DNA of 64,000 nucleotides from Desulfobacterales bacterium (GTDB lineage: Bacteria; Desulfobacterota; Desulfobacteria; Desulfobacterales; JAUYIZ01): the NCBI GenBank assembly GCA_030688615.1, contig JAUYIZ010000358.1:1006-65005 (forward strand), given 5' to 3'. The notes below the pieces were generated by a model, which saw nothing but the letters and a program-made list of their open reading frames with translations, was not told where the DNA came from and ran no database searches. A program made the position numbers and the translations under genes. Every line of letters starts with the position of its first letter. The first letter of the stretch is position 1. Shown in pieces: positions 11,188 to 27,571 of this stretch.

Positions 11188-11967
11188 CTACCGGGGGGTT
11201 GCCTCATCCCGCTGGCGGTTCCAGCGGACCCAGTCGTTGAGGTCTTCATCGATTGAAAACCGGAAAGGGGCCGTGGCCGTGCCGTCCGGGCTCACGGTAA
11301 TCTGCTGCAGGGCGCCGACAAGGTAGGTCCACTGTTCCATGGTTACCGGGCGGGGGCCCTGTATGGGAGAAGGACCCAATACTCTGGAAGGTTGCTGCAT
11401 GGGTCCGGGGGCGGCCGCGGACGGGTCCTGCCTGAGGCTGTTGACCAGCACTTCCCCCCAGTACACCTTAACCACCACGGACTGGTCTGAGGCCACATTC
11501 AGGCGATAAACCGTTCCCCGAATACCGGCCACCGCGGTTTTCGTCGTTATCTTGAAATCACTTTTGCTTGCGAATATCTTGGATACATTCGCCCATATTT
11601 TTCCGAGGCCCATCTTCACATTGACCTGGACCTTTTCACTCCCGCCGTCCGCCGGCGCAGGGACCAGTTCAAAGCGCGTCTGTTCGTCAAACCGGATATA
11701 ACTCTGGTCCGGCATTTTAAGCTCCAGCCTGGATTTTTTCCCGGTGCTGATTTGATCCCCTGGAACCACATGATCCCTTAATGATAAATGTTTTGGTGCT
11801 TTAACCCCTTTTTTAATGACCTCCGCACGGCCCTCAAGGGATGTGACTTCCGCATTTCCCGGCCCCATTTCCACCGATACATTCCCGTTTGCCGCTTGCG
11901 CCGGAAATGAGAGCGAAAATATCAACAGCGCCGTTACCCCTATGAGGTTAACTCTAAAGCATCTCAT
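11188..11967 (-). CDS. Secreted FecR-domain protein
   Basis: Signal peptide ending PAQA. FecR-like core: VPGDQISTGKKSRLELKMPDQSYIRFDEQTRFEL ... TAVAGIRGTVYRL. Confidence 0.65.
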   Translation of the reverse strand: MRCFRVNLIGVTALLIFSLSFPAQAANGNVSVEMGPGNAEVTSLEGRAEVIKKGVKAPKHLSLRDHVVPGDQISTGKKSRLELKMPDQSYIRFDEQTRFELVPAPADGGSEKVQVNVKMGLGKIWANVSKIFASKSDFKITTKTAVAGIRGTVYRLNVASDQSVVVKVYWGEVLVNSLRQDPSAAAPGPMQQPSRVLGPSPIQGPRPVTMEQWTYLVGALQQITVSPDGTATAPFRFSIDEDLNDWVRWNRQRDEATPR

Positions 11968-11998
11968 GCCGTCTACTCCACGGATGGTCTAGTAACAA

Positions 11999-12136
11999 GT
12001 CAAAGTTCAGACGGTTTTGTAAAAAGCTCTAAATTCAAGGCGCGCAAGTTTCGTGCGATGAGGCGTACTTGACGTACGCCGCAATCGCAACGGAATGCAG
12101 CGCAACGCAGAAGTTGGGCTTTTTACGAAACCGTCA
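11999..12136. mobile_element. MITE-like palindromic repeat, full copy A (~138 bp)
   Basis: Near-identical to 61890-62027. The terminal inverted repeats are GACGGTTTTGTAAAAAGC (12010-12027) and GCTTTTTACGAAACCGTC (12118-12135). The central hairpin is GGCGTAC-ttgac-GTACGCC. The right end contains the TGA stop of gene 12134-13288. Confidence 0.75.
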
Positions 12137-13288
12137 CAGCTGGTTTTTGAGGGTCCGTATACTGAGCAAAGCGTCGGCCCCGGAAACGGGCCCCGCCGCA
12201 TCAAATTCGCCTGTCTTAAAATCTTTAATCTCCATAATGCCCCGGGTGACACAGAGCACGGCCGCATTGAAATAGGGCAGGTCGTTTCTCAGGTCCGGGA
12301 AAGGAGAACTGCCACCGATAAACTTCGTGGCCAGTTTTTCATCGCCGGTAGTTTTGATGATGATATCTTCTATCATCATGGCAAAGCCCGCACGGGTTAT
12401 CATCTGGTCGGGTTTAAAGGTATGGTCGGGGAAAGCTTCAAGCCCCTTGATGCCGATTTCGAGCGCCGCGTGTATATCGGCGCTTAAGACATGATCCGCG
12501 GCATCGGTCACAGGGGGATTTTTTTCCTGCGCTTGCGGCATCAAACTCTTTTCAGGGCTTTGAAAAGAAGTGTTGAACTTGGCGGGTCTTTTTGCGGAAA
12601 ACAGCTGGTCAACCTTGAGCTCCTCGATAAACAGGGCCGCCACATCCGCACGGGTTATTTCAGCCATCAGCGCGATTTTTTTTCCGATTTCCGATCCCGG
12701 CATCGCCCGTTCGATTTTTTGAATCATCTTCCATTCCTGATCTGCCGCCGCCACATGGTCCCGGTTAAGATCGATCACCTTGCGAAACTGATTTTTTGCA
12801 TCGGAAAACTGCAATGCTTCCTTGTGGGCCATCCCCATGTAATAATAGGGTCCGGCAAGATCGGGCGTGGCCAGAATTGCTTTGTCAAAGTGGCTCTTTA
12901 CCTGTTCCAGCCAGTCACCGCCGATCTTCTGGTTTCCCATGATGTACAGCCGCATGTACCCCACGTAGACGGCGCTTTCCTGTGCCTTGTCCTGAGCATA
13001 TTGTTCGGCCTTCTTCAGTTGCCCGAGACCATTTTTATAGTCCGATCTAATACCATGGACCAGGCCAAGACCGACATAAGCAGGCGAATATTTCGGGTCC
13101 AGTTCCCTGGCCCGGTCAAATTCACGGAAAGCCGCTTCAATCTTGTTCGCATTGAGCAGCTTCACACCGCTGGAAACATGATGGGACGGCGTATCCAGGG
13201 CTGCTTTCGGGGCAAGGGGTTTGGGACCGCATGAAAAAATAAAAACGCAACCGGCGATCAAGATAAAAGCTTTCGTTTTTAAGGACAT
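12134..13288 (-). CDS. Lipoprotein with N-terminal TPR repeats and C-terminal SLH-like domains
   Basis: Lipobox FIFSCG. TPR-like AAFREFDRARELDPKYSPAYVGLGLV. Three SLH-like segments are present: ITRADVAALFIEELK, ITRAGFAMMIEDI, VSGADALLSIRTL. Confidence 0.6.
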   Translation of the reverse strand: MSLKTKAFILIAGCVFIFSCGPKPLAPKAALDTPSHHVSSGVKLLNANKIEAAFREFDRARELDPKYSPAYVGLGLVHGIRSDYKNGLGQLKKAEQYAQDKAQESAVYVGYMRLYIMGNQKIGGDWLEQVKSHFDKAILATPDLAGPYYYMGMAHKEALQFSDAKNQFRKVIDLNRDHVAAADQEWKMIQKIERAMPGSEIGKKIALMAEITRADVAALFIEELKVDQLFSAKRPAKFNTSFQSPEKSLMPQAQEKNPPVTDAADHVLSADIHAALEIGIKGLEAFPDHTFKPDQMITRAGFAMMIEDIIIKTTGDEKLATKFIGGSSPFPDLRNDLPYFNAAVLCVTRGIMEIKDFKTGEFDAAGPVSGADALLSIRTLKNQL

Positions 13289-13314
13289 GATTCCTCCGTG
13301 CTCCGGATTTCGGG

Positions 13315-14160
13315 CTAGTCAACCACAACCATTACGCGGCATTTTTTCAGAAAGGAAAGGTGCTCGGAAGCACTCCGGAGTCTGGCAGCGTCGGAATTGC
13401 TCACAACGATATTTGAAAACCCGCCGCCCTCTGTTTTCAACCCTTTGACGGTCAAGGGGTTGTCCGCGACCCGCTGGTTGGTTATGGCCGCTTTGATGTC
13501 CTTGGCGTATCCGGTCATCCCTTGCTGGACGGCAAACTCCCGGCTGACATAAGCAGACCCGTAAACTTCCTTGCCGTCTTCATCAAGTATCTTGGGGGCC
13601 ATTGCAGGCCGCGCATTTAAACCCCTTGCGTCCACCACCAAACCTGTAAATGCCTTCATCTGCTCTTTCGCATCAGAGGCCGATGGGTTTACGGCCGGCT
13701 TGATCGGTTCAATCTGCTTGATTTCCCTGGGCAGAATCAGCTGGGAAAACCCGCCGTGCAAACTCAACTGCATGACGATTTCCACCGTGCCGTCCGACAT
13801 GTATTCCTGTTTAACCAGTTCTGCCCCCTGCACCATTCCCGAAACTTTTGCGTTGATGACATCGCTTTGAATTGCAAAGTTTTTCACCGTCGTGCTGGAA
13901 TCAATCCGGACACCGTTGACAATTTCCAGGATGTTACGCAGGGCATCGATTCGCGCCGCCCTGAGCGCCATGGGACGGGCCTGGGGTTTACCATAGTCCT
14001 TTTCAGGCGGGGCCCCGATGCCTTTGGCCTGAACCTTTCCTGTTGTCCAGTTGATACTTCCATTTTGAAGCCTCTCTTCCACGTCCTGGCCGGCGGCATT
14101 TCCGTTAGCAAAAAACCCCAGAGATAAAATCAGCAGAATAATCAACGAACACTTTTTCAT
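13315..14160 (-). CDS. LPP20/FlgP-like secreted protein with a conserved C-terminal TGLVVDARG module
   Basis: Signal peptide. The LPP20-like core is ARPMALRAARIDALRNILEIVNGVRIDSSTTVKNFAIQSDVINAKVSGMVQGAE. The C-terminal half is homologous to that of gene 19623-20819. Confidence 0.6.
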   Translation of the reverse strand: MKKCSLIILLILSLGFFANGNAAGQDVEERLQNGSINWTTGKVQAKGIGAPPEKDYGKPQARPMALRAARIDALRNILEIVNGVRIDSSTTVKNFAIQSDVINAKVSGMVQGAELVKQEYMSDGTVEIVMQLSLHGGFSQLILPREIKQIEPIKPAVNPSASDAKEQMKAFTGLVVDARGLNARPAMAPKILDEDGKEVYGSAYVSREFAVQQGMTGYAKDIKAAITNQRVADNPLTVKGLKTEGGGFSNIVVSNSDAARLRSASEHLSFLKKCRVMVVVD

Positions 14161-14197
14161 AATTCCTCCTTAACGATATTTCCGCAAAACACTCTCA

Positions 14198-14485
14198 TTA
14201 GTCCCCTTTCTGGGGAATTTTATGCCAGTATTGCATGGCAATCCCATCTTTGAGCACATCGACGAGAATCCATGCATCCCCGGTCCGGGTGTCAATTCTG
14301 AAGAGTCTTTTTTCGATAAACACCGTGGTTTTGCTTTGTTGTATCATGGTTGAATTGTATTCCGCATTAAACAGTTGAAACCTTTGTTCCTCTTCCTTAT
14401 TATCTGCGGCCATCGATGGCGGCACGGAAAAAATCAGAACAAGCAGGCCGATGCATACGACTGGTAACGATATATATTTTTTCAT
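14198..14485 (-). CDS. Small secreted hypothetical protein (95 aa)
   Basis: N-terminal signal peptide (PPSMA/AD). It is packed tightly within the operon. No recognisable domain. Confidence 0.5.
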   Translation of the reverse strand: MKKYISLPVVCIGLLVLIFSVPPSMAADNKEEEQRFQLFNAEYNSTMIQQSKTTVFIEKRLFRIDTRTGDAWILVDVLKDGIAMQYWHKIPQKGD

Positions 14486-14504: not shown

Positions 14505-16496
14505 TCACTTTTTGGGCTGTACCAAGGGGCTGGCGACCATCTGACTGTCCTCGGGGTTGCTTTTCAACCCGTCCTGGTCTTCGGCAACGACCCGATATCT
14601 AAAGGTCGCGCCGGGACTTAAATCCCGGTCGGTATAATCGGTTTCCCCTGCAGCCCTTTGCGCGATTTTTGACCAGGAGCCGTTGTTTTTGCTGCGGTAT
14701 AGAAGATATCCCGTGATGTCCGGCTCCATGTTTTTCTCCCAGCGCAAGGAAATCGTGTCCGGATTCGCCGTTACCGTCAGGCCTTTTACATTGGCGGGAA
14801 CAGGTTTGGTCGTAGCATGCACCGCCGGACTCGCCGGGCCTTCCGCGCCGAAAAGATTAAAACTGGTGACCGCATAATAATACCTCGCGCCATCGTTGAC
14901 CTGCTCGAACATGGTCCCGCCGTCCAGATAGAAATGGGATTTATAATCATCGACCTTGGTGACGAATTTGAGCGCATTGAGGTCACTTCCCCGGTAAACG
15001 GAATACCCTCCCACATCCGCATCCGCAAGGCTGGTCCAGGAAATACGGACAGATCGGAACATACCGCTCTGGGCCATTACATCCACCGGGAAGGAAGGCA
15101 AGGCTTTCGTCCTGACCCGCACCATGTTCGAAGGCCCTGATTCACCAAAGGAGTCGTACCCGGTCATATGGTACTGATAGTCCCGCCCGTCCTCAAGCTC
15201 CCTGGAATCGGTCAGCTCAAACTGGAGAGGTGTGTTTATCTTGGCGACCTTGAGCCATTTTCCCTCAACAAGCCGCCGATAGAGATAATAGCCTTCCACA
15301 TTTTCTATGGGTTTCCACGAGAACTGAGCCTTTCTGAGCAAATTGTCCTGAGCGGCCGCGAGGGTCGGGCGCGCCACCGTAGCCGCCGACTGGGAATCGG
15401 ACAGCAGGCTTTCAAGATCATTCTGGTCCACACTTGAAACCGCATAGGTGTAATTTTCCTGATCTTCCAGATTGTCCGTATCCCTGGCGTTGAATGCCAA
15501 TTCGTTTTCGGATATCTGGGTGGCATCTATGGTTTTTATCTTTTCCCAGTCCGCGCTTGATTTTGATTTCCGGTAAATGACATATTGAATGATTTTAAAT
15601 CTTTCCTGCCGGTTTAAAAGGGAGGGAACGAACTTAAGCTCCATGCGCCGGACGTGGCCCGTCAGGCTTAAAATCAGCGGCGGGTGAGGAATTTTTTCGC
15701 CGACATTTTTAATCTGTGCGGTATGCCTGCTCTTTACTTCCTGGCCGGAATGAAGCAGTACGCCCACGCGATAATAGTAAGCCCTGCCCCTTTGGATCTG
15801 GGTGTCCTGGAAAATGTTTTTGGTCGTTTTCCCATGCAGCTGAAAGGGCCCTTCAGCGCTTTCCGCGCGATACATATTAAAACCTGTGATGGGCCTTTCC
15901 GGATTAAACTTCCAGGTCAGAACCACTTGATTTCCAGCGCTTTTCGCGCGAAGATCTTCAATGTCAACATCGGCCGGTTCCGCTGTAAGGGAAGGAATTC
16001 CCGCCGCAGCCCTCCCGCTGGAAATCGTTGCGCTCAACTCCCTGGCAACTTGGGGAATACGGGCCAGGATATCTTCCCGCCCTGAATATTCATGGGTCCA
16101 GATTTTTCGCACCGCTTTGCCCTGGATGTCCATGAGACTGAGGTGAGAAGTGATCCTTCCGCCTGTTCTCGAAACATTGCCGAAAAGGATAAAAGAAACC
16201 CCGAGGACGCCGCCGGCTTTTAGAACGGTCTCCGGATTATCCCCCTGGACCAGCCCGGCCTGAAACAGAACTTCCTCCATGGCCCGCCGCGACATGACCT
16301 TGATTGTTTTCTCCCTTTCCATGGCCGAAATCAACGCATATAGAATTTCCCCGTCATACCCCATGGCTTCGATATTGGTGGGCCGGAAATTAAAGATGGC
16401 CAGGGCGTTATTTTGGGCATGGGAAAAAGCCGCCGCATAAAGCAGGCAGAAACCGGCGGATGCGATCCAGATTATGCTCCGGGAACGAAACCTCAT
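14505..16496 (-). CDS. Secreted protein with an N-terminal LpoB/CsgG/FlgO-like module followed by about five fibronectin type III-like repeats
   Basis: Signal peptide, then LAIFNFRPTN...GVSFILFGNVSRTGGRITSHLSLMD. Five repeats share the pattern xxLxWxxxxxxxIxGYxxYR...YxYxVxAxD. Confidence 0.65.
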   Translation of the reverse strand: MRFRSRSIIWIASAGFCLLYAAAFSHAQNNALAIFNFRPTNIEAMGYDGEILYALISAMEREKTIKVMSRRAMEEVLFQAGLVQGDNPETVLKAGGVLGVSFILFGNVSRTGGRITSHLSLMDIQGKAVRKIWTHEYSGREDILARIPQVARELSATISSGRAAAGIPSLTAEPADVDIEDLRAKSAGNQVVLTWKFNPERPITGFNMYRAESAEGPFQLHGKTTKNIFQDTQIQRGRAYYYRVGVLLHSGQEVKSRHTAQIKNVGEKIPHPPLILSLTGHVRRMELKFVPSLLNRQERFKIIQYVIYRKSKSSADWEKIKTIDATQISENELAFNARDTDNLEDQENYTYAVSSVDQNDLESLLSDSQSAATVARPTLAAAQDNLLRKAQFSWKPIENVEGYYLYRRLVEGKWLKVAKINTPLQFELTDSRELEDGRDYQYHMTGYDSFGESGPSNMVRVRTKALPSFPVDVMAQSGMFRSVRISWTSLADADVGGYSVYRGSDLNALKFVTKVDDYKSHFYLDGGTMFEQVNDGARYYYAVTSFNLFGAEGPASPAVHATTKPVPANVKGLTVTANPDTISLRWEKNMEPDITGYLLYRSKNNGSWSKIAQRAAGETDYTDRDLSPGATFRYRVVAEDQDGLKSNPEDSQMVASPLVQPKK

Positions 16497-18518
16497 TTAA
16501 CCTCCGATCTGGGCTTTGTAGTTTCGGAAAATTTCATCAATCTTTTCCAGCGCCTGTTTGGATAAAGGTGACCCCTGGATCATTTTCAGTTTTTCGTCAA
16601 ATACGGCGTTGATATAACCTTCCGCGGCATTAATGGTATCTCTTCGCCGCAGATAATTATCGCCTGCCGTGGAATAGGTGTTCTCAAGATTCTGAAGCGG
16701 ACGGAGCGCCTCCCGGCCCAGTTCAGCCACCACCTCATCGGTCATCTGCTGAAGCAGCTCGGTGTCCGTCGCGATTTCCAGCGGATCAAACTTGACTTTG
16801 GCCTCCGGAAGTCCCGCGCTGGTTTCATCCTCAACGGTTTTTTTGCTTTCAATGGTCCGGACCTGAATATTTTCCCCGGTGCGCACGTCCACGATCCGGA
16901 AAGAAAGCTGCGCAAACCCCACCTTTTTGTGATGGGAAACCTTGTACTCCTTTTCAGCATACTCCGGGGCGACAATTTTTGCCGGCGGCGCATTCTTGAT
17001 TTCGGATTCGCTCGCTTTCGGATTTTTTGCCACCCAGTTGAGGTAATTTATATTATCCTGGATGCGCGTGCCGATCTGGTAACGCACCGATTTTGTGCCA
17101 TCGGAAATGCTGGTGTCCACTTTGTAAAGCAGCACGCTGCCCATGATGGCCACATCGATGCCGTAAACACGCCCCATTTCCTTGGCCGTGTTGGAAGAAA
17201 CCACCCCGATCTGCCCCAGTTTCATCTCTTCTAAAATGGACTTTAAATTTTCGCGCTCCAGTATCTTGATATCGCCGCTAGCGTTTTTAAACAGATAGGT
17301 AATCAGGTTATTTGCCACAATAACCCCGGCATCGCTATAATGGGAGGGACTGCCGAAATCAAAAACAGCTATCGATTTTTGGACCCTGGTGCGGATTTCA
17401 TCTTCCATGGCCTGGCTTAAAAAGAAAATATCTTTATATGCCGGATCAATCTTTTTCAGTTTTTCATACCAGAACCAGGCGCTGCCGAATTTGCCCTGTT
17501 CCTTAAAATAGTCGGCTAAAAAAGCCGCCCGGCTTGCCAGATCCCTGCGCAGGCTGTTGAGCTGAAAATCGTTCGGGTCCCCGATGTAACTGGCTGCCAG
17601 GTCAAATTCGCCAAACCCTTTAAATATCCAGCCGTCATTCATCTGGGCCCGGGCTTGGCTGATATAGAACTCGCCGGCTTTTACCCGCACCTGGGCAATC
17701 AGCTGCCGTAACTCCTGGTCGTCCGGATCGTATTCAAGGGCTCTTCGATAGGATTTTGCGGCCCGGTCCCACTTTTGCGCGATGACCGCCTCTCTGGCCT
17801 GTTTGATAAAATAGTCCTTGTTGTCCTGTTGCTGGGCGATCCCAAGAAGTTCCCTGGAAGGTTGATGATCCCCTTTCAATGCCAGGGCTTTGCGAAGATT
17901 TTCAGCGGCGCCCTTAAAATCCTCCTGGTCAAAGAGGGCTTTTCCCTGCTGGAAAAAGGACTGAGACCCTTTTTGAGACGTTTCTGCAAGCAGCCGGAAT
18001 GAATCCTCATAGTTTGGAAAAATCGTCTGGAGCTGCTGCAAATTAAAATAGGCCTTTAACCATTCATTGCCGCCCATCAGGGTCTTGGTTTCGGCATAAA
18101 GACGGTTTGCCTCATCGAGCAGCGATTTTTGCGCCTTGTCCACCTGACCGGAAAAGCGGGTGACTTCCGGATGGCCGGCATCTATTTCCCGGGCCTTGGC
18201 AAGCTGATCCTTGGCCGTATTGATGGCGGCGACATTCAGGGGCGACTGGGAGCTTAAGGCTTTGGAACCCTTGTCCACATAATCCCGGATGAGATTTTCT
18301 TTTAAATCCGCCAGGGACTTTTGATATTCTTGATTGCCCGGCTCTTTGGCAATGGCCTGTTCAAGATAGGCGATGGCCTCCTTGTATTTTTTGGCCGCGC
18401 TTAACTGCATGCCGATTTTATATTCCTCCTGTCCGGTAGCGCACGCCAGGATAAAGGTCACCAATAGAAAAAAAATTCCGCCCCGCATGATTCCCCGTTT
18501 TTTCATGTTATCCTCCAA
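16497..18518 (-). CDS. TPR-repeat lipoprotein with a C-terminal CsgG/LpoB/FlgO-like module
   Basis: Lipobox ILACATG. Multiple TPR-like helices, e.g. KYKEAIAYLEQAIAKEPGNQEY and WDRAAKSYRRALEYDPDDQE. C-terminal region: SIAVFDFGSPS...ERENLKSILEEMKLGQIG...GIDVAIMGSV. Its stop abuts the next start at 16496/16497. Confidence 0.65.
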   Translation of the reverse strand: MEDNMKKRGIMRGGIFFLLVTFILACATGQEEYKIGMQLSAAKKYKEAIAYLEQAIAKEPGNQEYQKSLADLKENLIRDYVDKGSKALSSQSPLNVAAINTAKDQLAKAREIDAGHPEVTRFSGQVDKAQKSLLDEANRLYAETKTLMGGNEWLKAYFNLQQLQTIFPNYEDSFRLLAETSQKGSQSFFQQGKALFDQEDFKGAAENLRKALALKGDHQPSRELLGIAQQQDNKDYFIKQAREAVIAQKWDRAAKSYRRALEYDPDDQELRQLIAQVRVKAGEFYISQARAQMNDGWIFKGFGEFDLAASYIGDPNDFQLNSLRRDLASRAAFLADYFKEQGKFGSAWFWYEKLKKIDPAYKDIFFLSQAMEDEIRTRVQKSIAVFDFGSPSHYSDAGVIVANNLITYLFKNASGDIKILERENLKSILEEMKLGQIGVVSSNTAKEMGRVYGIDVAIMGSVLLYKVDTSISDGTKSVRYQIGTRIQDNINYLNWVAKNPKASESEIKNAPPAKIVAPEYAEKEYKVSHHKKVGFAQLSFRIVDVRTGENIQVRTIESKKTVEDETSAGLPEAKVKFDPLEIATDTELLQQMTDEVVAELGREALRPLQNLENTYSTAGDNYLRRRDTINAAEGYINAVFDEKLKMIQGSPLSKQALEKIDEIFRNYKAQIGG

Positions 18519-18524: not shown

Positions 18525-19598
18525 TCAATCAATTCTTTTAATAGTTATTCGGTTGTTGGAAATATCTTCCATCTGGGATTTAAAATATTTTTTATTAAAG
18601 TAGGACATCTGGATTTCATCGGCGAACTGCTCGGGCCAGCCCCTGTATTTGAGATGGTATTCGGCGCTGTTCTTGCTGAAGCGTATCAAGGTCGAACTTA
18701 AGATGCCACTCACGTCCGATTTAAAAATCACAGCGGTCTCCTGCGCCACCGCATGGGAGGGCACGGCCTTGACGATCAGATATATTTCCCGTTCGCTGAA
18801 CAGCTCCTTTTCCCATACGGCCAGAAGTTTCTGTCTCAAATTTTTCCAGATGGCATCCACGCAAGATATTGCCCCCTTGTCCAGGGCTTTCAGGGAATTT
18901 TCCCCCGGCAGGGATTTTACCGCGTTGGCGGCGGCTAAAATCTCGCCGTCGCCCGGCCGGTAGATGTTCGCGCTCAGGCTGACTTCATTGAGGGTGATTT
19001 CCAGGTCCTGGTACTTGGTATGCTTCGAGGCCACTTCAAGGCTTAACCCCACCAGAAGTCCCATTTGCAGCGGGTTGTCCTTGGCGTATTTGAAAACGCT
19101 TAACCCGGTATTTTTAAGTTTATCCGTCAGCAGGTTGGCCGTTTTGTTGGCAGTGGGCCAGTAGTTTTTATTCAAATTGGGGTCGATAACAATGCTGATA
19201 CGCGGATTTTTTTGCCAGCTCAGAATTTTTTGGAACCGATCCAGATCATCCACCAGCGCCGCAATCTCGACATCGGCTTCGATTGTTATTTCGTAGGACC
19301 CCAGAGCGGACTTTTTTTCCTCCAAAATTTTAAGATCTTTCAGATACCCGCTGGCACGGCTTAATATCTGATCTTTGACCACCTGGAAGTTTTCAACCAC
19401 GGTGTTGGACTGGATCGAGGTGCCCACGGCCTTTTCCACCGCTGCCCTTTTGGCTTCATCCAGGGCCTTTTCACGGGCCACAACCTCTCTTCCGGGCTCA
19501 TAAAAACTAAGCCCTTTGGCGGTGACGACATTACCGGCGCGCACCAGAGAAGGGCAGATAAACACGATGCTGAACAGGCATATTAGGGTCTTTTTCAT
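18525..19598 (-). CDS. Secreted LPP20/FlgT-N-like protein
   Basis: Signal peptide ending VRA. Core: REKALDEAKRAAVEKAVGTSIQSNTVVENFQVVKDQILSRASGYLKDLKILEE. It is a paralog of gene 43576-44715. Confidence 0.5.
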   Translation of the reverse strand: MKKTLICLFSIVFICPSLVRAGNVVTAKGLSFYEPGREVVAREKALDEAKRAAVEKAVGTSIQSNTVVENFQVVKDQILSRASGYLKDLKILEEKKSALGSYEITIEADVEIAALVDDLDRFQKILSWQKNPRISIVIDPNLNKNYWPTANKTANLLTDKLKNTGLSVFKYAKDNPLQMGLLVGLSLEVASKHTKYQDLEITLNEVSLSANIYRPGDGEILAAANAVKSLPGENSLKALDKGAISCVDAIWKNLRQKLLAVWEKELFSEREIYLIVKAVPSHAVAQETAVIFKSDVSGILSSTLIRFSKNSAEYHLKYRGWPEQFADEIQMSYFNKKYFKSQMEDISNNRITIKRID

Positions 19599-20819: not shown

Positions 20820-20820
20820 T

Positions 20821-22956
20821 TCACTTTGCTGTGCACAGGGGCGCTTCGGACAGCGCCGGTTTCCAAATGACATTGCCGAGAAACGATGCCGCATCGGGAA
20901 GGGGCTGCCCCCAGTAATTATCGGAAAAATCGAGCTGGAAGGGCGTATAACTCTGGACCTGAAAAGGATTATTGTTGAGGAACACACTCTGACGAATAAC
21001 CGGCGAGAGGCCCTCTCCTTCTACCACGACAGCGCCCTGGCCTTCGTTGTCCGTGACATAGGAACACGTGATGTTGGGTTTTGCGTTGTCTTTCAGATAG
21101 ATGCCGGCCTGGGCGCTGCGGGTTATTCGAAGTCCCGTTACCGTGGGCGCGCTGTTTTTAATGCTCAACCCGGTTTCGGCTTTCTCAATGGACACATGAC
21201 GGAGCACCGCCCGCTTTGCACCCTCGAGGAACACGCCGCGCCATGCTCCGGGCGAACTCCCGTCGGCCTTGGCGCCCAGGTAAATGGGGTTGTCCTGGAT
21301 TCCGTAAGCTAAAAGGTCCCCGCCGTCAATTGTCAGGGCCGTGTCCGCGGCAAACAGGATCTTCACCCCGGGCTCGATGTAAAGAACACCGCCGGGAGTG
21401 ACAAACAGGTCGGCCAGCACCGTATAGGGGTTTTTTTCAGCCACCAGAAGAACCTTGTTATTCACCTCACCCCCCAGCGCAGGTCCGGGCTGGGGCAGAC
21501 CGTAAAGATCCGGCTCGGGCAAAGGGACGGCTTCAACGGGCGGGCTGAAGTTTCCCGCATTGGCGGCCTTATCTATGGCCCGGACCTTGAAATAAACCCG
21601 GGTAAAATTGGCCACATTTTCAATCAGCGCCTCATTTTTCTCGCTTTTGGCGTTTAAAGCATACCCGCTGATGGGCGACGGGCTGGACCACACCTCATAT
21701 TTTGACAGGTCCGCGGCAAGGTTTGCGGCCCATTGCAATTTGATCTTGTTGTCTAAAGACATGGACTGTAAACTTGTGGTTTCTCCGGGCGGCAGGCTGT
21801 CAATATCAACGGTGTGCACCGCATCAATGGTCGCGGTCTGGGCTCCGGCCGGGTTAACCAGATATGCCTTGGCCAGAAGACCGTACGATTCCTCGCCGGG
21901 GGACACCATATAGCTGCCTTCGTACACTTCCCGGGAGACCAGTTCCTTTTCCACCGCGGCCACAAGCTCCGGGGTCAGTTCATGGCCCGTGTCTTTATAA
22001 TTTTTTTTGATGGCGCCCAGCACCTCGGCCTGCAACGCCTGCTTGACGGGCGGGGAGACCGGCCGCACTTCCAGACCCATCTTATAGTCTCCCAGGTCCA
22101 CATAGGCGGAGCTGCCCGGGTCGCCGATGATTCTGAATCCGATTCTATCGCCGGCCCGGTAGGGTTTTTCCGAATTCAAAACGGCAAAAAAATCGACCCG
22201 GGGCGCCGGCGGCTGAGCCGCCAAGACGGATTCAGGGATGTCCATGGTGGAAACGACCTCCCGGAAAAGCGCATCGGTCTGTCCCAGCATTTCGCTCTTG
22301 CGAAGGTTCCACACCGCTGCCACCGTGGAGGTGATCAGGCCGATGGGGTTTAAAGAAATGCCGCCGGCATGCGCCCGGCTGACCTGCTTGGCGCGCCATA
22401 AGAGGTTTCCGGTCTTCAAGTCCCACATTTTCACTTCGCCACCCACCGCCACCTGTGAATAAATCCCCAGGAAAATGCGATCGAAATGAGTTACCTTGCC
22501 GGATATTACCGCGTCCACCCCGAGAATGCTCATGAGCTTTTTGGGGTTGTTGGCGATGAGATCGTCAACTTTCTGAATGTCATCCAGGCCCGCGTTTTTC
22601 AGGCGTTTCTCGGTCTGATATATTTCCAGATCCGTAAAAGGCAGGGAGGACACATGGTTGTACATGCCCCGCCGCACGATATCGGTGGGGTTTTCAGAAG
22701 CAAGGTCGATGGAATAGCTTTTCCCCGTAAGGTTTTCAAAAGGCAATACGGCAATGGAAGAAGGTTTATACCTTTTAAAGTAGGCCGTATTTTCGTATTC
22801 GCCGGAAAAGCTTTTAAATGCTTCACTGGTGGCAATGATCGCAGGAATGCTCTTTTCATCCCCATAATGGGCGCAACCGCCAAGAATGATCAGCAACGAG
22901 AGGATAAAAAGAGGAAAGGATCTGTGTAAGAAACATTTCATGGCAAAACCCTTCAT
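20821..22956 (-). CDS. Lipoprotein with an N-terminal DUF799/GNA1162-like module, an FN3-like domain and C-terminal parallel beta-helix repeats
   Basis: Lipobox LGGCAH. N-terminal region: SIAVLPFENLTGKS...GVDAVISGKVTHFD...ISLNPIGLI. FN3-like segment: IKLQWAANLAADLSKYEVW...YFKVRAIDKAAN. Beta-helix-like repeats: SIKNSAPTVTGLRITRSAQAGIYLKDNAKPNITCSYVTDNEGQG. Confidence 0.6.
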   Translation of the reverse strand: MKGFAMKCFLHRSFPLFILSLLIILGGCAHYGDEKSIPAIIATSEAFKSFSGEYENTAYFKRYKPSSIAVLPFENLTGKSYSIDLASENPTDIVRRGMYNHVSSLPFTDLEIYQTEKRLKNAGLDDIQKVDDLIANNPKKLMSILGVDAVISGKVTHFDRIFLGIYSQVAVGGEVKMWDLKTGNLLWRAKQVSRAHAGGISLNPIGLITSTVAAVWNLRKSEMLGQTDALFREVVSTMDIPESVLAAQPPAPRVDFFAVLNSEKPYRAGDRIGFRIIGDPGSSAYVDLGDYKMGLEVRPVSPPVKQALQAEVLGAIKKNYKDTGHELTPELVAAVEKELVSREVYEGSYMVSPGEESYGLLAKAYLVNPAGAQTATIDAVHTVDIDSLPPGETTSLQSMSLDNKIKLQWAANLAADLSKYEVWSSPSPISGYALNAKSEKNEALIENVANFTRVYFKVRAIDKAANAGNFSPPVEAVPLPEPDLYGLPQPGPALGGEVNNKVLLVAEKNPYTVLADLFVTPGGVLYIEPGVKILFAADTALTIDGGDLLAYGIQDNPIYLGAKADGSSPGAWRGVFLEGAKRAVLRHVSIEKAETGLSIKNSAPTVTGLRITRSAQAGIYLKDNAKPNITCSYVTDNEGQGAVVVEGEGLSPVIRQSVFLNNNPFQVQSYTPFQLDFSDNYWGQPLPDAASFLGNVIWKPALSEAPLCTAK

Positions 22957-23005: not shown

Positions 23006-23034
23006 AGAATAATGATATGATCAATTTTTGTCAA
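23006..23034 (-). promoter_or_regulatory. Putative sigma70-type promoter of the lipoprotein operon
   Basis: Minus strand reads TTGACA (23034-23029), a 17-nt spacer, then TATTCT (23011-23006). This lies about 50 nt upstream of the ATG at 22956. Confidence 0.4.
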
Positions 23035-23089: not shown

Positions 23090-24499
23090 TTAAGATATCC
23101 GGCTGAAATCTATCGCTTTAAATTTAAGGACAACCACGTAGATAATCAGCAGTTCTATCAATAATGCGGCCGGTTTGATAAATATATTGAAATAATGGAA
23201 CAGCACAAAAAGTATGACGTAGACGATAATCAGGTGCAGCAGAATCGGTTCGATGCCTTTGCGCACTTCTGAAAATAAGAGAAAGAATATTTTAATGCCG
23301 TACGTTTTTTTTCTTAAATCATCAAAGCCTTGATGCACGCGCCGGACCGCGGGAGTCTTGATCAGAATGCGGCTGAATTTTTCCACCAGCGCGACACTTG
23401 AAATGTAACCCATCAATTTTTTTATGGTGGACAACTCCCGGCGGCCGTAAAAAAGGAACGCGTAAAAAAGTGAAGCGCACAGGATGAGAAAATAATACGC
23501 CACCCCGGCCACCTCGGTAATCAGGTTGTCTTGAAGCATGTTCAGCAGGAGGTTGGCATGGATCTTTACTCCGGGAATATAGCCGTAAAAAGGCACCAGC
23601 TTCATGTCGCCGAGCCCGGTTGCGACGGCTGCGATAAACACGATTTTATCTTTGAAAAACCGCCCGGGAATCCTGCCGGACCATATGTCATAAAAGGATA
23701 TTTCTCTGATTTTATTTTTTGAGTCGATATTGATGTGCGCCCGGGAAAGGGCGTCCACCGGTATTTTGAACCTGCCGGCCCGGATCACACCTTTCTGGAT
23801 GGCAACCTTTTCCAGCGGAATGTCATTGATCCGGCGCAGGACCTCAAATGCAAGGGTTGGATAAAGCCGGTCTTTCACTTTTAGGACAATGGGGATCTTT
23901 CTCAACAATCCGTCATTATCCGGGTAGGCATTGGCCAGGCCGAAGCCCTGGAGCGCCTGAAAAATAGCAGGAGAAATGGATTCAAAGCCCTTCTCGTTGA
24001 TAAACCCTTTGGGCAAGCCGGCCGGGGCCTTTTGCGAAAAGGGCTCAAACATACCCTTGGACCGGTCATTTTCAGATGCAAAAATAACGGAAAACACCGG
24101 TCCGGTTGCCATGGTTTGCGCCAGGCGGGAATCCACCTCGGGGTCGTCATGGGGATCGGCAAACAGAATATCGTAAACCACGGCTTTGGGGCGGCCCGCC
24201 AGAATATTTTTCAGCAGGCCGATGTGATAGGCTCTGTATTTTAAGGGGTTGTAGGCGCCAAGTTTGTTCAGGGTTCTATCGTCGATGCCCACCAGGACGA
24301 CATTGCTGTAGTTTTGGGAGGCAACATCCCTAAAACGCTCACGGGTCGCCAGAAACTGGGTATAAAACGCATCATCAACCTGCACCAGGATGTTGGCCAC
24401 CAGCCCTTTGAGCGTGATGCTGATGAAAAGCAGGGAAAAACTTGCCAGGGCCAGTGAAATCACGGCGATATATTTATTTTTTTCCTGAAATGTTTTCAC
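23090..24499 (-). CDS. CHASE2 sensor-domain membrane protein with no recognisable output domain
   Basis: N-terminal TM segment, then VVLVGIDDRTLNKLGAYNPLKYRAYHIGLLKNILAGRPKAVVYDILFADP. C-terminal hydrophobic segments follow, but no cyclase, kinase or GGDEF motifs. Confidence 0.6.
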   Translation of the reverse strand: MKTFQEKNKYIAVISLALASFSLLFISITLKGLVANILVQVDDAFYTQFLATRERFRDVASQNYSNVVLVGIDDRTLNKLGAYNPLKYRAYHIGLLKNILAGRPKAVVYDILFADPHDDPEVDSRLAQTMATGPVFSVIFASENDRSKGMFEPFSQKAPAGLPKGFINEKGFESISPAIFQALQGFGLANAYPDNDGLLRKIPIVLKVKDRLYPTLAFEVLRRINDIPLEKVAIQKGVIRAGRFKIPVDALSRAHINIDSKNKIREISFYDIWSGRIPGRFFKDKIVFIAAVATGLGDMKLVPFYGYIPGVKIHANLLLNMLQDNLITEVAGVAYYFLILCASLFYAFLFYGRRELSTIKKLMGYISSVALVEKFSRILIKTPAVRRVHQGFDDLRKKTYGIKIFFLLFSEVRKGIEPILLHLIIVYVILFVLFHYFNIFIKPAALLIELLIIYVVVLKFKAIDFSRIS

Positions 24500-25235
24500 G
24501 ATCGCGCAACAACTTTTCCCGCCTCAGATTCCACAGCACCCAGGGATCTTTTGAAAAGCCTTGGACATCCAGATCTTTCTTCTCATATCCGCCCCGGGAA
24601 TCAATGGTGATCTGTTGCAATTCGTTAATAATTTCCACCCATTTTTCCATGCTGACCGAGTGGGGGCCGGTAACCGGGCGAGGTTTTGATATTGACGGCT
24701 GTTTGCCCGGCGCTGCTTCCGGCTGCCCGGGCCGGCTGCTCCAGGCGGCCACCTGGCCCTCATGAACGCTGACCCGGGTTCGATCACTGGTCTCATCAAC
24801 CCTGAAGGTCGTCCCCCGTATGGCGCATACGGCTTTGTCCGTGTGGACCTGAAAGGTTTTATTTTTCGAGACGATTTTCCGCGCGTTGACCCAGACTTTT
24901 CCAGCTGCCAGAAATATGGAAAACTTTTGCAGCGCTTTGGCTTTCTTTTCCTTTTCAAGTTCAAGTTTCTGGATGGAATTTTCATCCATCCGCAGAACGG
25001 AACCGTCGTTGAGGGTGATTTCACAGCGGGATTCAGGCCCGGTCCGGATCCGGCCGCCCGGAAAAACCTTGTCGTCCAGATGAAGCGGCTCCCATTTTTT
25101 TCCGTCAAAAGAGACCGAGGCCTCCCCCAGGATAAACGACATCGTGCCGATGGCCTCCGGCTGCATATCCGCATATGAGGGAACGCAGAAAAAACCAACC
25201 CCTAAAGACAGACCGATCATGAAAAACTTTTTCAT
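24474..25235 (-). CDS. Secreted FecR-domain protein
   Basis: Start at MKKFFMIGLSL (25235) is preceded by GAGGA; the ORF is open to 25265. FecR-like core: FPGGRIRTGPESRCEITLNDGSVLRMDENS ... AVCAIRGTTFRV. Confidence 0.65.
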   Translation of the reverse strand: MKKFFMIGLSLGVGFFCVPSYADMQPEAIGTMSFILGEASVSFDGKKWEPLHLDDKVFPGGRIRTGPESRCEITLNDGSVLRMDENSIQKLELEKEKKAKALQKFSIFLAAGKVWVNARKIVSKNKTFQVHTDKAVCAIRGTTFRVDETSDRTRVSVHEGQVAAWSSRPGQPEAAPGKQPSISKPRPVTGPHSVSMEKWVEIINELQQITIDSRGGYEKKDLDVQGFSKDPWVLWNLRREKLLRDRENISGKK

Positions 25236-25268
25236 AGCGTGTTTCCTCGACTCCGGCGTGTTCAAACA

Positions 25269-25306
25269 GGTAACCGTTCACGGTTATCGGTTCACAGTTT
25301 TTTCAA
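25269..25306. repeat. Heptanucleotide tandem-repeat element, single arm
   Basis: GGTAACC GTTCACG GTTATCG GTTCACA GTTTTTT CAA. It is identical to the reverse complement of 34352-34396 apart from one missing GTTCACA unit. Confidence 0.7.
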
Positions 25307-25315
25307 GGATGGGCA

Positions 25316-27571
25316 CTATTTGGTTTTCATGGTGTAGGCCCCGTCCCAGTCCTTGCCCGGCGGATCCGATTTGAACTCATTACATCGGCTTATGAAGGTT
25401 TTGCTGGGGCCGTCGTCGGGAGACGCCGCCAGGGCGGCATTAAAATAATTGATGGCCTCGTCCCACTGCCGTTCCCGGTATGCATAACGTCCTTTGGCAT
25501 ATTGATCCACGGTTTCCCGGGTCCGGGCATCGACCTCGTTGATATAGCCCATGATCTCATAAATATTCACCGCTTCTTTTTTCCCCACCACATTGATCGA
25601 ATCAATCTGCCGGGTCATGATTCGATCTCCGCATGCTTTGTATGTTGTTTCACTGATCAGGGTGTAAATTCCATACACTTTGTTTACGCCTTCCAGTCGG
25701 GCCGCGGTATTGACGGTATCGCCCATCATCGTGTAATCCATGCGGTTTTTGGATCCCATGTTGCCCACCACGGCACTGCCAGTGCAAAGACCAATCCGCA
25801 TCTTCAGCTCCGGTTTCCCGGCCGCTTTCAGCTCGACCCGCCGCCGGGCTAATATATTCTGCATTTCAACGCAGGCGATACAGGCTCTTTCCGCATGATT
25901 TTCAAGGTCGTTGGGCGCACCGAATAGCGCGATGATGGCGTCCCCTTCAAACTTATCCACGGTTCCTTCAAGATCCAGGATGATTTCGGTCATTTCCGTC
26001 AGGTATTCATTGAGCAATTCAACCAGCGCAGGGGCGGTCAGCTTTTCAGAAATGCTCGTAAACCCCTCCAAATCCGAAAAAAATGCCGTGATTTCACGGT
26101 TTTCCCCGCCTAAAACCAGTTTCTCGGGCGATTCGATCAGCTGTTTCACCACCGATGGAGCAAGGTACGTGGAAAAAGCGCTGCGGATAAACGCTTTCTG
26201 TCTGGATTCGGAAAAGTATCGATACGCCGTGATGCCGGTATAGGCCATCAGGATGACGATCAGTGGATACACAAGGTTTAAAATCCATCCATAGGAGGAA
26301 AAAAGATACTGGCAGAGAACGATATAAAGCACAAAAGCCGTAAACCCTGTTCCGGTGCCGAGGATGACGCCGCCTCTGGGAAGTAAAAACCCGAGTAAAA
26401 GACCGCACAGAACGATTGCCATCATGTCGAAAAGGGCCACCCAGCCGGGTTTCTGCAAAAAATCTTTCGAAAAAATGCTGTCCACGATATTGGCATGAAT
26501 TTCCAGCCCCGGATAAACACTCTCAAAGGGCGTGTTGCGCAAATCATAAATGCCGGTGGCCGTGGCCCCCACAAATACGATTTTATTCTTCAGGATCTCG
26601 TCTGAAACTTTGCCCTGCAGAATATCGGTGATGGAAATATGGGGGAAAATTTTCTGCTTACCCCGGTAATTGATCATGATCCTTCCAATTTCATCGGTCG
26701 GGATCTGCACCCTTCCGATGCGGACCTTTTCAACGCCGTAATCGGCGATTTTTACCGAAAGGGGCTGGTTCCAAAAAGCGCTCATAACCTTAAGGGATAG
26801 CGGGGCGTAAAGGTTGTCCCTGAACTTGAGCACCGCCGGAAGCCATCGAACCACACCGTCCGTTTCGGTGAACATATTAAAAAAACCGGCGTCGCCGGCA
26901 GCGGTTGCGATTTCCCTGATGTTGGACTGGGGCACTTTCCCCGCTAAAAAGGGCAGATTCCGGGCGCCTTCGGAAGCATACTGTACAAATGCATATTTTG
27001 CCCCTTGCACATTCTCCGCATGCGTCTGGATGTCTTTTTCGGTAATATGTTCGATCTCCCTGTCGTCCATTTGAAAAAAATACCCGAGGACCACTTTGGC
27101 CTTGGATTTTTTGATGGCTTCGGCCAGCAGTCGATCATTGTCGGACTCCAGCGTTATCTTTTCCAGGTAGTTCTGAAATTCACTGTTTTGGATCTTAAAA
27201 TCGGCAAGGCTTGTTTTAATTTGGTCCAGGGCGTGGATCAGTCGTTTATTGTCCGGTTCGAGAAATCCCACATCGAACCCGATGACCTTGGCGCCGGCGT
27301 CTGAAAGCCTGTTGATCAGATGGGCGAATTTTTTCCTCGGCCAGACCCAATTTCCCTCCACGGCAATGCTCTTTTCATCCACCACCGCCAGCACCACCTC
27401 CGGTCCCGGTGGTATTTCCCCCCGGGATTGAAATCGCAGATCGATGGTCCTCAATTCCATTAATTCGAGGAAGGGCACTTTCACGGTATAGGCGGCCAGA
27501 CCCAGGATAATGGTGAGGGCGGCAATGGTAAGGGGGCTTAATTTAACATATTTTTTAATGAAGGCGGCCAT
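25316..27571 (-). CDS. Class III adenylate/guanylate cyclase with an N-terminal CHASE2 sensor and a C-terminal TPR-like tail
   Basis: CHASE2 motif: VLAVVDEKSIAVEGNWVWPRKKFAHLINRLSDAGAKVIGFDVGF. Cyclase motifs: ITAFFSDLEGFTSISE, VDKFEGDAIIALFGAP, RIGLCTGSAVVGNMGS, DYTMMGDTVNTAARLEG. Start taken at MAAFIKKY (27571). Confidence 0.8.
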   Translation of the reverse strand: MAAFIKKYVKLSPLTIAALTIILGLAAYTVKVPFLELMELRTIDLRFQSRGEIPPGPEVVLAVVDEKSIAVEGNWVWPRKKFAHLINRLSDAGAKVIGFDVGFLEPDNKRLIHALDQIKTSLADFKIQNSEFQNYLEKITLESDNDRLLAEAIKKSKAKVVLGYFFQMDDREIEHITEKDIQTHAENVQGAKYAFVQYASEGARNLPFLAGKVPQSNIREIATAAGDAGFFNMFTETDGVVRWLPAVLKFRDNLYAPLSLKVMSAFWNQPLSVKIADYGVEKVRIGRVQIPTDEIGRIMINYRGKQKIFPHISITDILQGKVSDEILKNKIVFVGATATGIYDLRNTPFESVYPGLEIHANIVDSIFSKDFLQKPGWVALFDMMAIVLCGLLLGFLLPRGGVILGTGTGFTAFVLYIVLCQYLFSSYGWILNLVYPLIVILMAYTGITAYRYFSESRQKAFIRSAFSTYLAPSVVKQLIESPEKLVLGGENREITAFFSDLEGFTSISEKLTAPALVELLNEYLTEMTEIILDLEGTVDKFEGDAIIALFGAPNDLENHAERACIACVEMQNILARRRVELKAAGKPELKMRIGLCTGSAVVGNMGSKNRMDYTMMGDTVNTAARLEGVNKVYGIYTLISETTYKACGDRIMTRQIDSINVVGKKEAVNIYEIMGYINEVDARTRETVDQYAKGRYAYRERQWDEAINYFNAALAASPDDGPSKTFISRCNEFKSDPPGKDWDGAYTMKTK

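Follow-up and report, generated by a model that had tools for sequence, protein, structure and literature searches.

We analyzed a window of 64,000 nucleotides (nt) from a Desulfobacterales bacterium (GenBank assembly GCA_030688615.1, contig JAUYIZ010000358.1, positions 1,006 to 65,005, forward strand), in which an initial annotation, made from the sequence alone, had described a minus-strand cluster of exported proteins beside CHASE2, FecR and cyclase genes. In our reading, positions 11188 to 30238 of this window encode one non-flagellar ring scaffold that would lie under the outer membrane, be anchored to the cell wall, cap an MCE needle and be controlled by cyclic AMP (cAMP). We give this reading an even chance. 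Homologs of all three types of Vibrio H-ring protein are present in the cluster: FlgT (g7), FlgP (g3 and g8) and FlgO/CsgG (g6, g9 and probably g5). Taken singly, the parts are of known kinds (H-ring proteins, an MCE bridge, a CHASE2/FecR cascade). What is apparently undescribed is their joint occurrence in the absence of a flagellum and alongside an ATPase predicted to be dead; we found no description of the combined system in the literature.

Twelve open reading frames (ORFs), g1 to g12, occupy positions 11188 to 27700 of the minus strand. The eight genes from 22956 down to 12134 are g9 to g2; g1, g10, g11 and g12 flank them. The features of the cluster and of the adjoining plus-strand operon are listed here by position, with the evidence for each in parentheses.

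11188..11967, minus strand: g1, secreted FecR-domain protein at the end of the cluster (Pfam FecR 4.4e-17; signal-like N terminus)
12134..13288, minus strand: g2, lipoprotein with N-terminal TPR and C-terminal SLH domains (Pfam; lipobox)
13315..14160, minus strand: g3, FlgP/LPP20-type N-domain and Tp0624-D2-like C-domain, with a signal peptide and no lipobox (Pfam; phmmer; profile)
14198..14485, minus strand: g4, secreted protein of 95 amino acids with no known domain, found after g5 in several related loci (tblastn synteny)
14505..16496, minus strand: g5, secreted protein with an N-terminal alpha/beta module (TolB_N/LpoB/CsgG/FlgO-like) and five FN3 repeats; invariant core (Pfam; synteny)
16497..18518, minus strand: g6, lipoprotein in which a TPR array is N-terminal and a CsgG-fold domain with two long beta-hairpins is C-terminal; invariant core (Pfam; AlphaFold; Foldseek; lipobox ILAC)
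18525..19598, minus strand: g7, secreted three-domain FlgT-like protein, the family marker; invariant core (AlphaFold and Foldseek)
19623..20807, minus strand: g8, paralog of g3 with a FlgP/LPP20-type N-domain, a coiled-coil insert and a Tp0624-D2-like C-domain (hhalign)
20821..22956, minus strand: g9, lipoprotein whose N-terminal alpha/beta domain is GNA1162/DUF799-like and whose C-terminal domain is a right-handed beta-helix (Pfam; lipobox LGGC)
23006..23034, minus strand: sigma-70-like promoter match, TTGACA-17-TATTCT, 10 of 12 positions, in the 133-nt gap upstream of g9
23090..24499, minus strand: g10, membrane protein with CHASE2 and no output domain (CHASE2 2.7e-42)
24474..25265, minus strand: g11, secreted FecR-domain protein encoded between the two CHASE2 genes (FecR 4.4e-21)
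25316..27571, minus strand: g12, CHASE2 sensor with a class III nucleotidyl cyclase and a C-terminal TPR (CHASE2 1.4e-59; Guanylate_cyc 6.1e-21)
27706..28503, plus strand: MlaE-like permease of the ATP-binding cassette (ABC) type, divergent from g12 across a 134-nt AT-rich region (MlaE 8e-47)
28512..29192, plus strand: MlaF-like nucleotide-binding subunit with degenerate catalytic motifs (ABC_tran only 4.3e-7)
29198..30238, plus strand: MlaD-like MCE protein comprising a transmembrane helix, one MCE domain, about 190 helical residues of needle type and a C-terminal tail that is conserved (MlaD 8.7e-14)

The initial annotation had described the eight genes as tightly packed behind one plausible promoter. 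The packing held: the ORFs lie where it had placed them, and we measured intergenic gaps from g9 to g2 of 13, 24, 6, 0, 19, 37 and 26 nt, taking MKVSRKAG at 20807 as the start of g8. The spacing between g2 and g1 is 166 nt, and 133 nt lie 5' of g9. The promoter match in the latter gap is present, but it is statistically unremarkable and hence plausible at most. The region contains 19 matches of this type against a chance expectation of 14.1 +/- 4.2, at which a single match is not significant, and the promoter and terminator scans gave counts no higher than shuffled expectation. Export of every product, also claimed, agreed with a motif scan, which found an N-terminal hydrophobic signal-like segment in all nine products from g1 to g9 and lipoboxes in g2 (IAGC/IFSC), g6 (ILAC) and g9 (LGGC). 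The products of g1, g3, g4, g5, g7, g8 and g11 have signal-like N termini without a lipobox call. Nearly all of the domains originally listed were recovered by Pfam, NCBIfam and PDB searches, but a sixth FN3 repeat, which had been placed in g9, was not.

In structure, g7 matches FlgT. The AlphaFold model of g7 (predicted local distance difference test score [pLDDT], 81.7) has domains at residues 22-111, 133-267 and 269-355. This is the domain plan of Vibrio cholerae FlgT (N, 24-109; M, 121-287; C, 292-377; bioRxiv 10.64898/2025.12.02.691832). With Foldseek, the best PDB matches of the model were FlgT (3w1e, 5.7e-10) and the FlgT of the Vibrio LPHT ring (8z5n_0, 2.9e-9), both in full-length alignments of about 400 aligned columns at 9-10% identity. 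LptE, CsgG, GNA1162, PelC and HpaA followed as the next neighbors of the middle domain. When the middle and C-terminal domains were compared by profile with other domains of the cluster, we found no similarity. The N-domain aligns without gaps with the FlgP chain 9hmf_C.

FlgP itself is represented by g3 and g8. Pfam LPP20 scored g3 at 26.4 bits, just over its cut-off of 25.9, and phmmer matched g3 to the solved FlgP chains of Campylobacter jejuni (9hmf_C), V. cholerae (9yds) and Vibrio alginolyticus (8z5n_2) at 1.7e-7 to 7e-5. The match to residues 67-160 of the C. jejuni protein (1.7e-7) is gapless and spans the segment from the helix to the second strand, which in FlgP holds a hairpin insert that correlates with ring formation (PMC12222027). 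In g8, Pfam LPP20 was absent and Pfam and NCBIfam gave only coiled-coil-type noise; hhalign joined its N-domain to that of g3 at 99.9% probability. The N-domains of g7, g3 and g8 are mutually homologous (hhalign probability, 97-99.9%), and the C-domains of g3 and g8 match each other at 99.2%.

These C-domains (13315-13716 in g3 and 19623-20024 in g8, minus strand) are also homologous to domain D2 of Treponema pallidum Tp0624: their profile matched residues 127-261 of 5jir_B with an E value of 1.3e-13. In the original description of this periplasmic, wall-associated protein, D2 was a new fold with neither relatives nor a function known (PMC5104382). The match ties this wall protein of the syphilis spirochete to the g3/g8 family.

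The third H-ring type, FlgO/CsgG, is clearest in g6. Behind a TPR array of about 370 residues, with many TPR matches, lies a domain that Pfam CsgG recognized at 3.5e-10 (40 bits; cut-off, 20.8) over profile positions 44-160 of 210. The AlphaFold model (pLDDT, 86.6) retrieved CsgG (4uv2, 6l7a and 4uv3) as the top Foldseek matches at about 2e-6, then PelC, HpaA and GNA1162. The hairpins of g6 sit at the positions of the CsgG membrane hairpins; reading the sequence by eye, we found that hairpin 1 has one hydrophobic face and that hairpin 2 is strongly charged (APEYAEKEYKVSHHKK). Pfam assigned g9 a GNA1162-like domain (3.1e-10) and a Beta_helix (2.4e-7), and a g9 ortholog is present in one locus of gammaproteobacterial type (L043). 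In g5, the FN3 repeats (fn3, 4.9e-17) cover residues 177-251, 297-372, 374-459, 482-553 and 566-655. Its N-domain has the typical motif pattern of the alpha/beta clan and drew sub-threshold matches to TolB_N, LpoB, CsgG and FlgO in 8, 6, 5 and 3 of 22 orthologs, respectively. Its profile found nothing meaningful among PDB sequences, and hhalign to the C-domain of g6 and the N-domain of g9 was weak (P, 0.002-0.009). Because the sub-threshold clan matches are consistent across orthologs, the g5 N-domain probably belongs to this clan. The FlgT, FlgP and FlgO/CsgG building blocks that the initial annotation had seen here are thus borne out by a fold match (g7), a sequence match to solved FlgP rings (g3) and a CsgG fold (g6).

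Three further products complete the exported set. In g2, Pfam found TPR_2 at 3e-6 and, in the window protein, SLH only at a sub-threshold 0.007; SLH was matched in all six g2 orthologs (best, 5.9e-11). The likely cell-wall anchor of the cluster is g2. No match to g4 was found in Pfam or NCBIfam. Its orthologs were located by tblastn in L001, L002, L005, L025 and L104, and a gene for 96 amino acids holds the equivalent position in L040. The FecR gene g1 follows g2 in four related loci as well (L008, L009, L010 and L019).

The initial annotation had found no transporter in the block. This holds for the eight genes but misses the adjoining divergent MlaEFD-like operon. The best PDB sequence match of its MlaD was Mce1F (8fed_F, residues 16-293), and the MlaD ortholog of L043 matched PF28544 Helical_needle, marked faint. 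The last 30 residues of MlaD (316-345) are conserved as strongly as the MCE domain, with a variable mid-needle. In MlaF, Walker A reads HSDNPEDAH, the signature LNQSE and Walker B IEFPED, and the H-loop His is replaced by Ser. All four motifs are replaced in this protein and in the 22 other Desulfobacterota orthologs that were aligned. Two gammaproteobacterial orthologs retain the Walker B Asp-Glu; none of the approximately 25 orthologs aligned from the two phyla has the Walker A lysine, the signature or the H-loop His. The MlaF-like subunit is therefore predicted to be ATPase-dead. Since MlaE (56-69%) and MlaD (47-58%) are well conserved among orthologs, the module is not decaying. The loss of the ATPase motifs is common to distant lineages, which speaks for a function of MlaF that is maintained and altered.

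We then asked how often the module and the cluster occur together. A metagenome search anchored on MlaD, made with a five-sequence alignment (a seven-sequence version was too divergent), gave 80 loci, of which 36 were informative in having at least 2.5 kb upstream of mlaE; L048 was counted by eye. A cluster gene lies directly divergent from mlaE in 21 of the 36, and the two are also linked in 10 genome loci. Which cluster gene is the neighbor of mlaE varies by lineage (g12, g3, g2, g7 or g9). Such variation is not what inherited synteny by itself would lead one to expect. In the gammaproteobacterium Catenovulum sp. SX2, one strand carries genes for a Crp-type regulator, LPP20, SLT, LPP20, TPR, a lipoprotein, MlaE, MlaF, MlaD, g7, g6 and g5, in this order. 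Overlapping frames extend from the TPR gene up to and including MlaF; beyond it, as far as g5, the gaps measure 2-18 nt. L041 and L043 have the gene set of this operon in a different order. From this linkage, the MlaE/MlaF/MlaD operon at 27706-30238 is predicted to belong to the system of the cluster. The suggestion that the structure is a stand-alone one is probably wrong, for Desulfobacterota have an MlaE/MlaF/MlaD-needle module linked to it and Gammaproteobacteria have this module in its operon.

Other Desulfobacterota have a simpler, paralogous version of this arrangement. In L048 (10001-17155), L056 and L066, mlaE-mlaF-mlaD is followed on the same strand by DUF6340/TPR and FlgT-like genes; in L081, which has the same mlaEFD operon, the FlgT-like gene is convergent just downstream. 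L048 continues downstream with a FlgT-like gene in convergent orientation, a pair of CsgG/TPR genes and one gene for a BON-domain protein. Upstream, all four loci have a CHASE2-cyclase/FecR/CHASE2 operon, and L048 and L066 have a Crp-like gene there as well. The window also contains a second secreted FlgT_N-like protein, of 379 amino acids (43576-44715, minus strand; FlgT_N, 21.9 bits), that is 29% identical to the N-terminal 138 residues of g7. Its gene stands apart from the cluster and adjoins an ABC importer (40670-43564); it may correspond to the paralogous FlgT-like genes beside mlaEFD in L048, L056 and L066.

The family is widespread. A profile search with g7 returned 1064 representative clusters at E<1e-10, and contigs taken at one genome per species gave 38 genome loci, which span Desulfobacterales/Desulfobacteraceae, Desulfovibrio sp. 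7SRBS1, Desulfohalobiaceae and Catenovulum. The eight-gene block, whose co-occurrence with the signaling operon the initial annotation had proposed to check across Desulfobacterales genomes, recurs in two phyla, but its constant core is g7-g6-g5 and not all eight genes. Where the contig was long enough, g7-g6 was visible in about 30 of the 38 genome loci, 28 of which also showed g5, and the order was invariant. Five more metagenome contigs carry the triad; L041, L043, L046 and the Catenovulum loci have gammaproteobacterial-type content. The accessory modules (g9-g8, g3-g2 with or without g1, g4, the CHASE2 cyclase and MlaEFD) are reshuffled between lineages and are absent nearby in many genomes; the g9-g8 pair, for example, was found in L004, L008, L029, L030 and L038. 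Metagenome contigs with remoter family members carry the set once more: g7, a CsgG-TPR protein, an FN3 protein of 940-1230 amino acids, small LPP20 proteins, an MltC_N/SLT lytic transglycosylase, a beta-helix protein, TPR lipoproteins, MlaE, an ABC subunit and a needle MlaD. Existing annotations call the orthologs hypothetical, "CsgG/HfaB family" or "FlgT N-terminal domain" proteins. We rejected heme-biosynthesis genes (families F4, F5 and F8) as members of the system; they are conserved housekeeping synteny in one lineage.

An SLT lytic transglycosylase is present in every gammaproteobacterial-type version, with MltC_N in four of five. The genes are as follows.

L033, 3684-5009: SLT gene
L041, 17291-18502: SLT gene
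L043, 7696-9354: SLT gene
L045, 13762-15618: SLT gene
L046, 17445-18869: SLT gene

Lytic transglycosylases are typical of machines that cross peptidoglycan. By tblastn, the window has no homolog of this enzyme; the SLH protein g2 is present instead. Directly downstream of g5 in L043 (16367-21077) are genes for a stand-alone cyclase-domain protein of 205 amino acids and a cadherin/Big_9 adhesin of more than 2970 amino acids.

As originally described, a CHASE2-cyclase/FecR/CHASE2 operon (g12-g11-g10) lies upstream of the cluster on the same strand, and a second FecR gene (g1) ends it. The order g12-g11-g10 is retained in L048, L056, L066, L068, L069 and L081, and g12 sits immediately upstream of g7 in L004, L009, L010, L019 and L023. 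Cyclic-nucleotide genes recur beside the system in both phyla, as a CHASE2 cyclase, a stand-alone cyclase or a Crp-type regulator. From its Lys/Asp specificity pair, read by eye, g12 is a predicted adenylate cyclase. Its start is probably MAAFIKKY at 27571, which leaves an AT-rich region of 134 nt (27572-27705) common to the divergent g12 and mlaE operons. No Crp-like palindrome was found in this region. The Crp-box pattern is not enriched in the window (10 found and 17.6 expected) and does not occur in the two regulatory intergenic regions, and tblastn found no Crp homolog in the window. The Catenovulum locus, L048 and L066 each carry a Crp gene. Expression of the cluster is probably under cAMP control through the CHASE2 cyclase/FecR module.

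Together, these parts suggest the following model. Like their flagellar and CsgG/PelC/PqiC relatives, the FlgT-like, FlgP-like and lipid-anchored CsgG-like proteins would oligomerize into concentric rings at the inner face of the outer membrane. In Desulfobacterales, g2 would fasten the assembly to the cell wall through its TPR-SLH architecture; in Gammaproteobacteria, the dedicated lytic transglycosylase would aid insertion of the rings. Projecting from the rings would be the g5 FN3 chain and the g9 beta-helix. A hexameric MlaD needle, with MlaE and the dead MlaF as its inner-membrane anchor, would dock its C-terminal tail into a ring of alpha/beta domains, as PqiB and PA3213 dock into the PqiC and PA3214 rings. 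The outcome would be a passive bridge from the inner to the outer membrane, acting as a conduit for hydrophobic molecules or as a tether. The CHASE2 cyclase and the periplasmic FecR proteins may sense a cue, external or from the envelope, and use cAMP to set expression or assembly.

Several observations weigh against this model. The Foldseek TM-score of g7 against FlgT is low (0.28), which we attribute to differing domain orientations, and Pfam FlgT_N scores g7 at 19.6 bits, under the cut-off of 28.8; remoter members of the g7 hidden Markov model family exceed that cut-off (P0145, 32.0; P0190, 36.2; P0239, 37.5; P0163, 39.6). By motif scan only, the FlgP-like g3 and g8 have no canonical lipobox, unlike the lipid-anchored FlgP. 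The hairpins of g6 could span a membrane, which favors a secretion pore. One Desulfobacteraceae lineage (L011, L014-L018, L022 and L024) has the triad alone beside the heme-biosynthesis genes, with no accessory gene within 10 kb. The coupling to mlaEFD is frequent and not obligate at the level of the locus, 15 of the 36 MlaD-anchored loci being without a cluster gene beside mlaE, and inherited synteny may explain part of this linkage in Desulfobacterales. The dead ATPase leaves the role of the ABC module without explanation. Finally, we infer the rings, the needle contacts, the assembly and the function from homology and gene linkage.

The alternative that survives best, which we nonetheless consider unlikely, is an outer-membrane export apparatus. 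The product of g6 would be a CsgG/PelC-like channel for a polymer or protein (the FN3 protein, the beta-helix protein or an exopolysaccharide), with the other lipoproteins as accessories, as in curli, HfaB and Pel/alginate systems. The CsgG domain and fold of g6 fit such a channel, as do its two long hairpins at the membrane-hairpin positions, the hydrophobic face of hairpin 1 and the PelC and GNA1162 fold neighbors. The source annotations of orthologs as CsgG/HfaB family point the same way, and so does the giant cadherin/Big_9 adhesin that adjoins the system in L043. The combination of TPR and beta-helix recalls AlgK/AlgG and PelB. However, no substrate, synthase or porin gene is conserved in any locus. 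The genes sought were csgA/B/E/F, hfaA/D and those for a glycosyltransferase or synthase, a cyclic di-GMP receptor and a beta-barrel porin; neither the window nor the related loci contain genes for csgE, csgF or an amyloid subunit. The high charge of hairpin 2 also argues against a channel. The putative substrates g5 and g9 themselves bear the ring-type alpha/beta domain, and g9 has a lipobox as well. An export apparatus would leave both the FlgT/FlgP homologs and the linked MCE module without explanation.

It is improbable, more so than export, that the proteins form an H-ring or basal-disk equivalent on flagella encoded elsewhere in the genome. The FlgT fold of g7, the matches of g3 and g8 to FlgP, the CsgG/FlgO-type domains and the UniRef name of the Catenovulum orthologs ("Flagellar assembly protein T N-terminal domain" proteins) would agree with this, and Catenovulum is flagellated. 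However, we found no flagellar genes in the window ORFs of at least about 190 amino acids (all but six of which were scanned), in the flanks scanned at the Catenovulum locus and, in part, at Desulfovibrio, or in the Pfam-annotated loci L040, L041, L043, L045 and L046, which together make seven related loci. As far as scanned, the genes on either side of the Catenovulum and Desulfovibrio loci have metabolic or unrelated functions. This agrees with the initial report of no flagellar, curli or pilus genes nearby, which extends to every flank examined in two phyla. The genes that invariably accompany the system (FN3, beta-helix, MCE or lytic transglycosylase) are not H-ring partners, the identity of g7 to FlgT is just 9-10%, and orthologs occur in Desulfonema, a gliding filamentous genus.

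A similarly small probability attaches to there being no single machine, only a loose set of peptidoglycan-regulating lipoproteins and periplasmic proteins (LpoA/LpoB-like, SLH) beside an unrelated, decaying Mla paralog and a common CHASE2/FecR operon. The weak LpoB and TolB_N matches of the g5 N-domain and related proteins, the TPR lipoproteins (which resemble LpoA), the SLH domain of g2, the MltC-like lytic transglycosylase of the gammaproteobacterial versions and the separability of the accessory modules from the core speak for such a set; against it, the order g7-g6-g5 is invariant over two phyla with tight or overlapping spacing, the same dozen families recur together in differing orders, MlaE and MlaD are too well conserved for a decaying module and the ATPase-motif loss is common to distant lineages.

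The left flank of the cluster contains the housekeeping genes panC, metK and ahcY. Downstream of mlaD on the opposite strand (30279-32164, minus strand) are genes for a DUF5661 protein, a protein of 131 amino acids and a GINT1_N-like/glycoside-hydrolase-like beta-propeller protein. Three paralogs of the UbiD (de)carboxylase family (32572-34206, 35655-37064 and 37100-38650), followed by a fumarate-reductase-like flavoprotein, occupy 32572-40365 on the plus strand, a set that resembles the anaerobic aromatic carboxylase clusters of sulfate reducers. The ORF at 44712-45650 (minus strand, 312 amino acids) is probably no gene; its translation is oddly rich in His, Gly, Pro and Arg and matches no family.

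A bolder claim, which we advance tentatively and hold to be clearly less probable than the ring scaffold itself, is that the locus represents a widespread trans-envelope organelle that has so far gone unrecognized. This would be an ATP-independent MCE needle on MlaE and pseudo-MlaF, capped by FlgT/FlgP/CsgG-FlgO rings, anchored to the wall via SLH or inserted by a lytic transglycosylase, gated by cAMP and related to the H-ring and basal disk as a free-standing form. If so, flagellar outer rings and an MCE-needle machine would share an ancestor, one having been exapted from the other. The origin of the H-ring, the basal disk and other flagellar outer rings is an open question, for which a non-flagellar system with all three H-ring types would supply a missing relative. 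The outer-membrane ends of MCE bridges are only now emerging, for PqiC-type rings, and this system suggests a far more elaborate terminus. A naturally ATPase-dead ABC platform would also be a clean test case for passive versus driven lipid traffic. Some carriers of the system are in culture, namely Catenovulum species, Desulfovibrio sp. 7SRBS1 and, as an enrichment, Desulfobacterium N47.

Among known systems, the CsgG channel and the PelC ring resemble g6 in its being a lipoprotein, in its CsgG score of 40 bits, in the Foldseek order of CsgG and then PelC, and in TPR partners, as with PelB. They differ in that curli and Pel genes are missing here, the g6 hairpins are longer and largely polar, a TPR array is fused to the domain and only profile positions 44-160 of 210 are covered. 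With Pel/alginate-type export, only the fold similarity to PelC is shared; the glycosyltransferase or synthase, cyclic di-GMP receptor and porin are not conserved in the loci. Tp0624 of T. pallidum (PDB 5JIR) has the D2 homolog of the g3/g8 C-domain; it has an OmpA-like domain and no FlgP domain, whereas here wall binding would fall to a separate protein, g2, with its SLH domain.

The signaling genes recall the Sinorhizobium meliloti cascade of Clr, CyaD1 (a CHASE2 adenylate cyclase), SMc02177 (FecR) and SMc02178, which controls root infection (PMC5498481). In both cases, a CHASE2-cyclase gene lies beside a gene for a periplasmic FecR protein, and a Crp-family regulator is nearby in Catenovulum, L048 and L066. 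Unlike that cascade, the window has a second CHASE2 protein without output domain and a second FecR gene, no Crp was found in it and the targets differ.

The H-ring proteins of Vibrio form concentric C26 and C58 rings (bioRxiv 10.64898/2025.12.02.691832), and Campylobacter FlgP forms the concentric rings of the basal disk (PMC12222027). The cluster shares with them the three-domain FlgT-like g7, gapless FlgP/LPP20 domains that include the ring-hairpin region (g3, g8 and the N-domain of g7), small lipid-anchored FlgO/CsgG-type alpha/beta domains and export to the periplasm or the inner face of the outer membrane. It differs in having no linked flagellar genes, in the approximately 10% identity of g7 to FlgT and in the coupling to an MCE/ABC module. 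Furthermore, the FlgP-like proteins here have an extra Tp0624-D2-like domain and no lipobox, and the CsgG-like domain is fused to a TPR array (g6), FN3 repeats (g5) or a beta-helix (g9).

The closest parallel for the MCE module is the group of MCE systems with an outer-membrane lipoprotein ring: Escherichia coli PqiABC, Pseudomonas aeruginosa PA3211-PA3214 and Brucella Mpc, a Mla-Pqi chimera (PMC13631591, PMC12436622). PA3214/PqiC is an outer-membrane lipoprotein that forms an octameric ring and binds the C-terminal peptide of the MCE needle (2026; PMC13631591). Its core fold is common to LptE, PelC, CsgG and FlgT, with HpaA also a structural neighbor (PMC13631591), and our g7 and g6 models retrieve the same list of neighbors. 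An MlaE-like permease and an MlaF-like subunit occur on both sides, as does a single-MCE protein that combines a helical needle with a conserved C-terminal tail. The nucleotide-binding domain here is without the Walker A lysine and the signature and, in Desulfobacterota, also without the Walker B Asp-Glu and the H-loop His. No cluster product has a Pfam match to the PqiC family (ABC_trans_aux); in its place are the CsgG, GNA1162 and FlgT_M types of the same structural superfamily. As many as nine additional exported scaffold proteins go with the module here.

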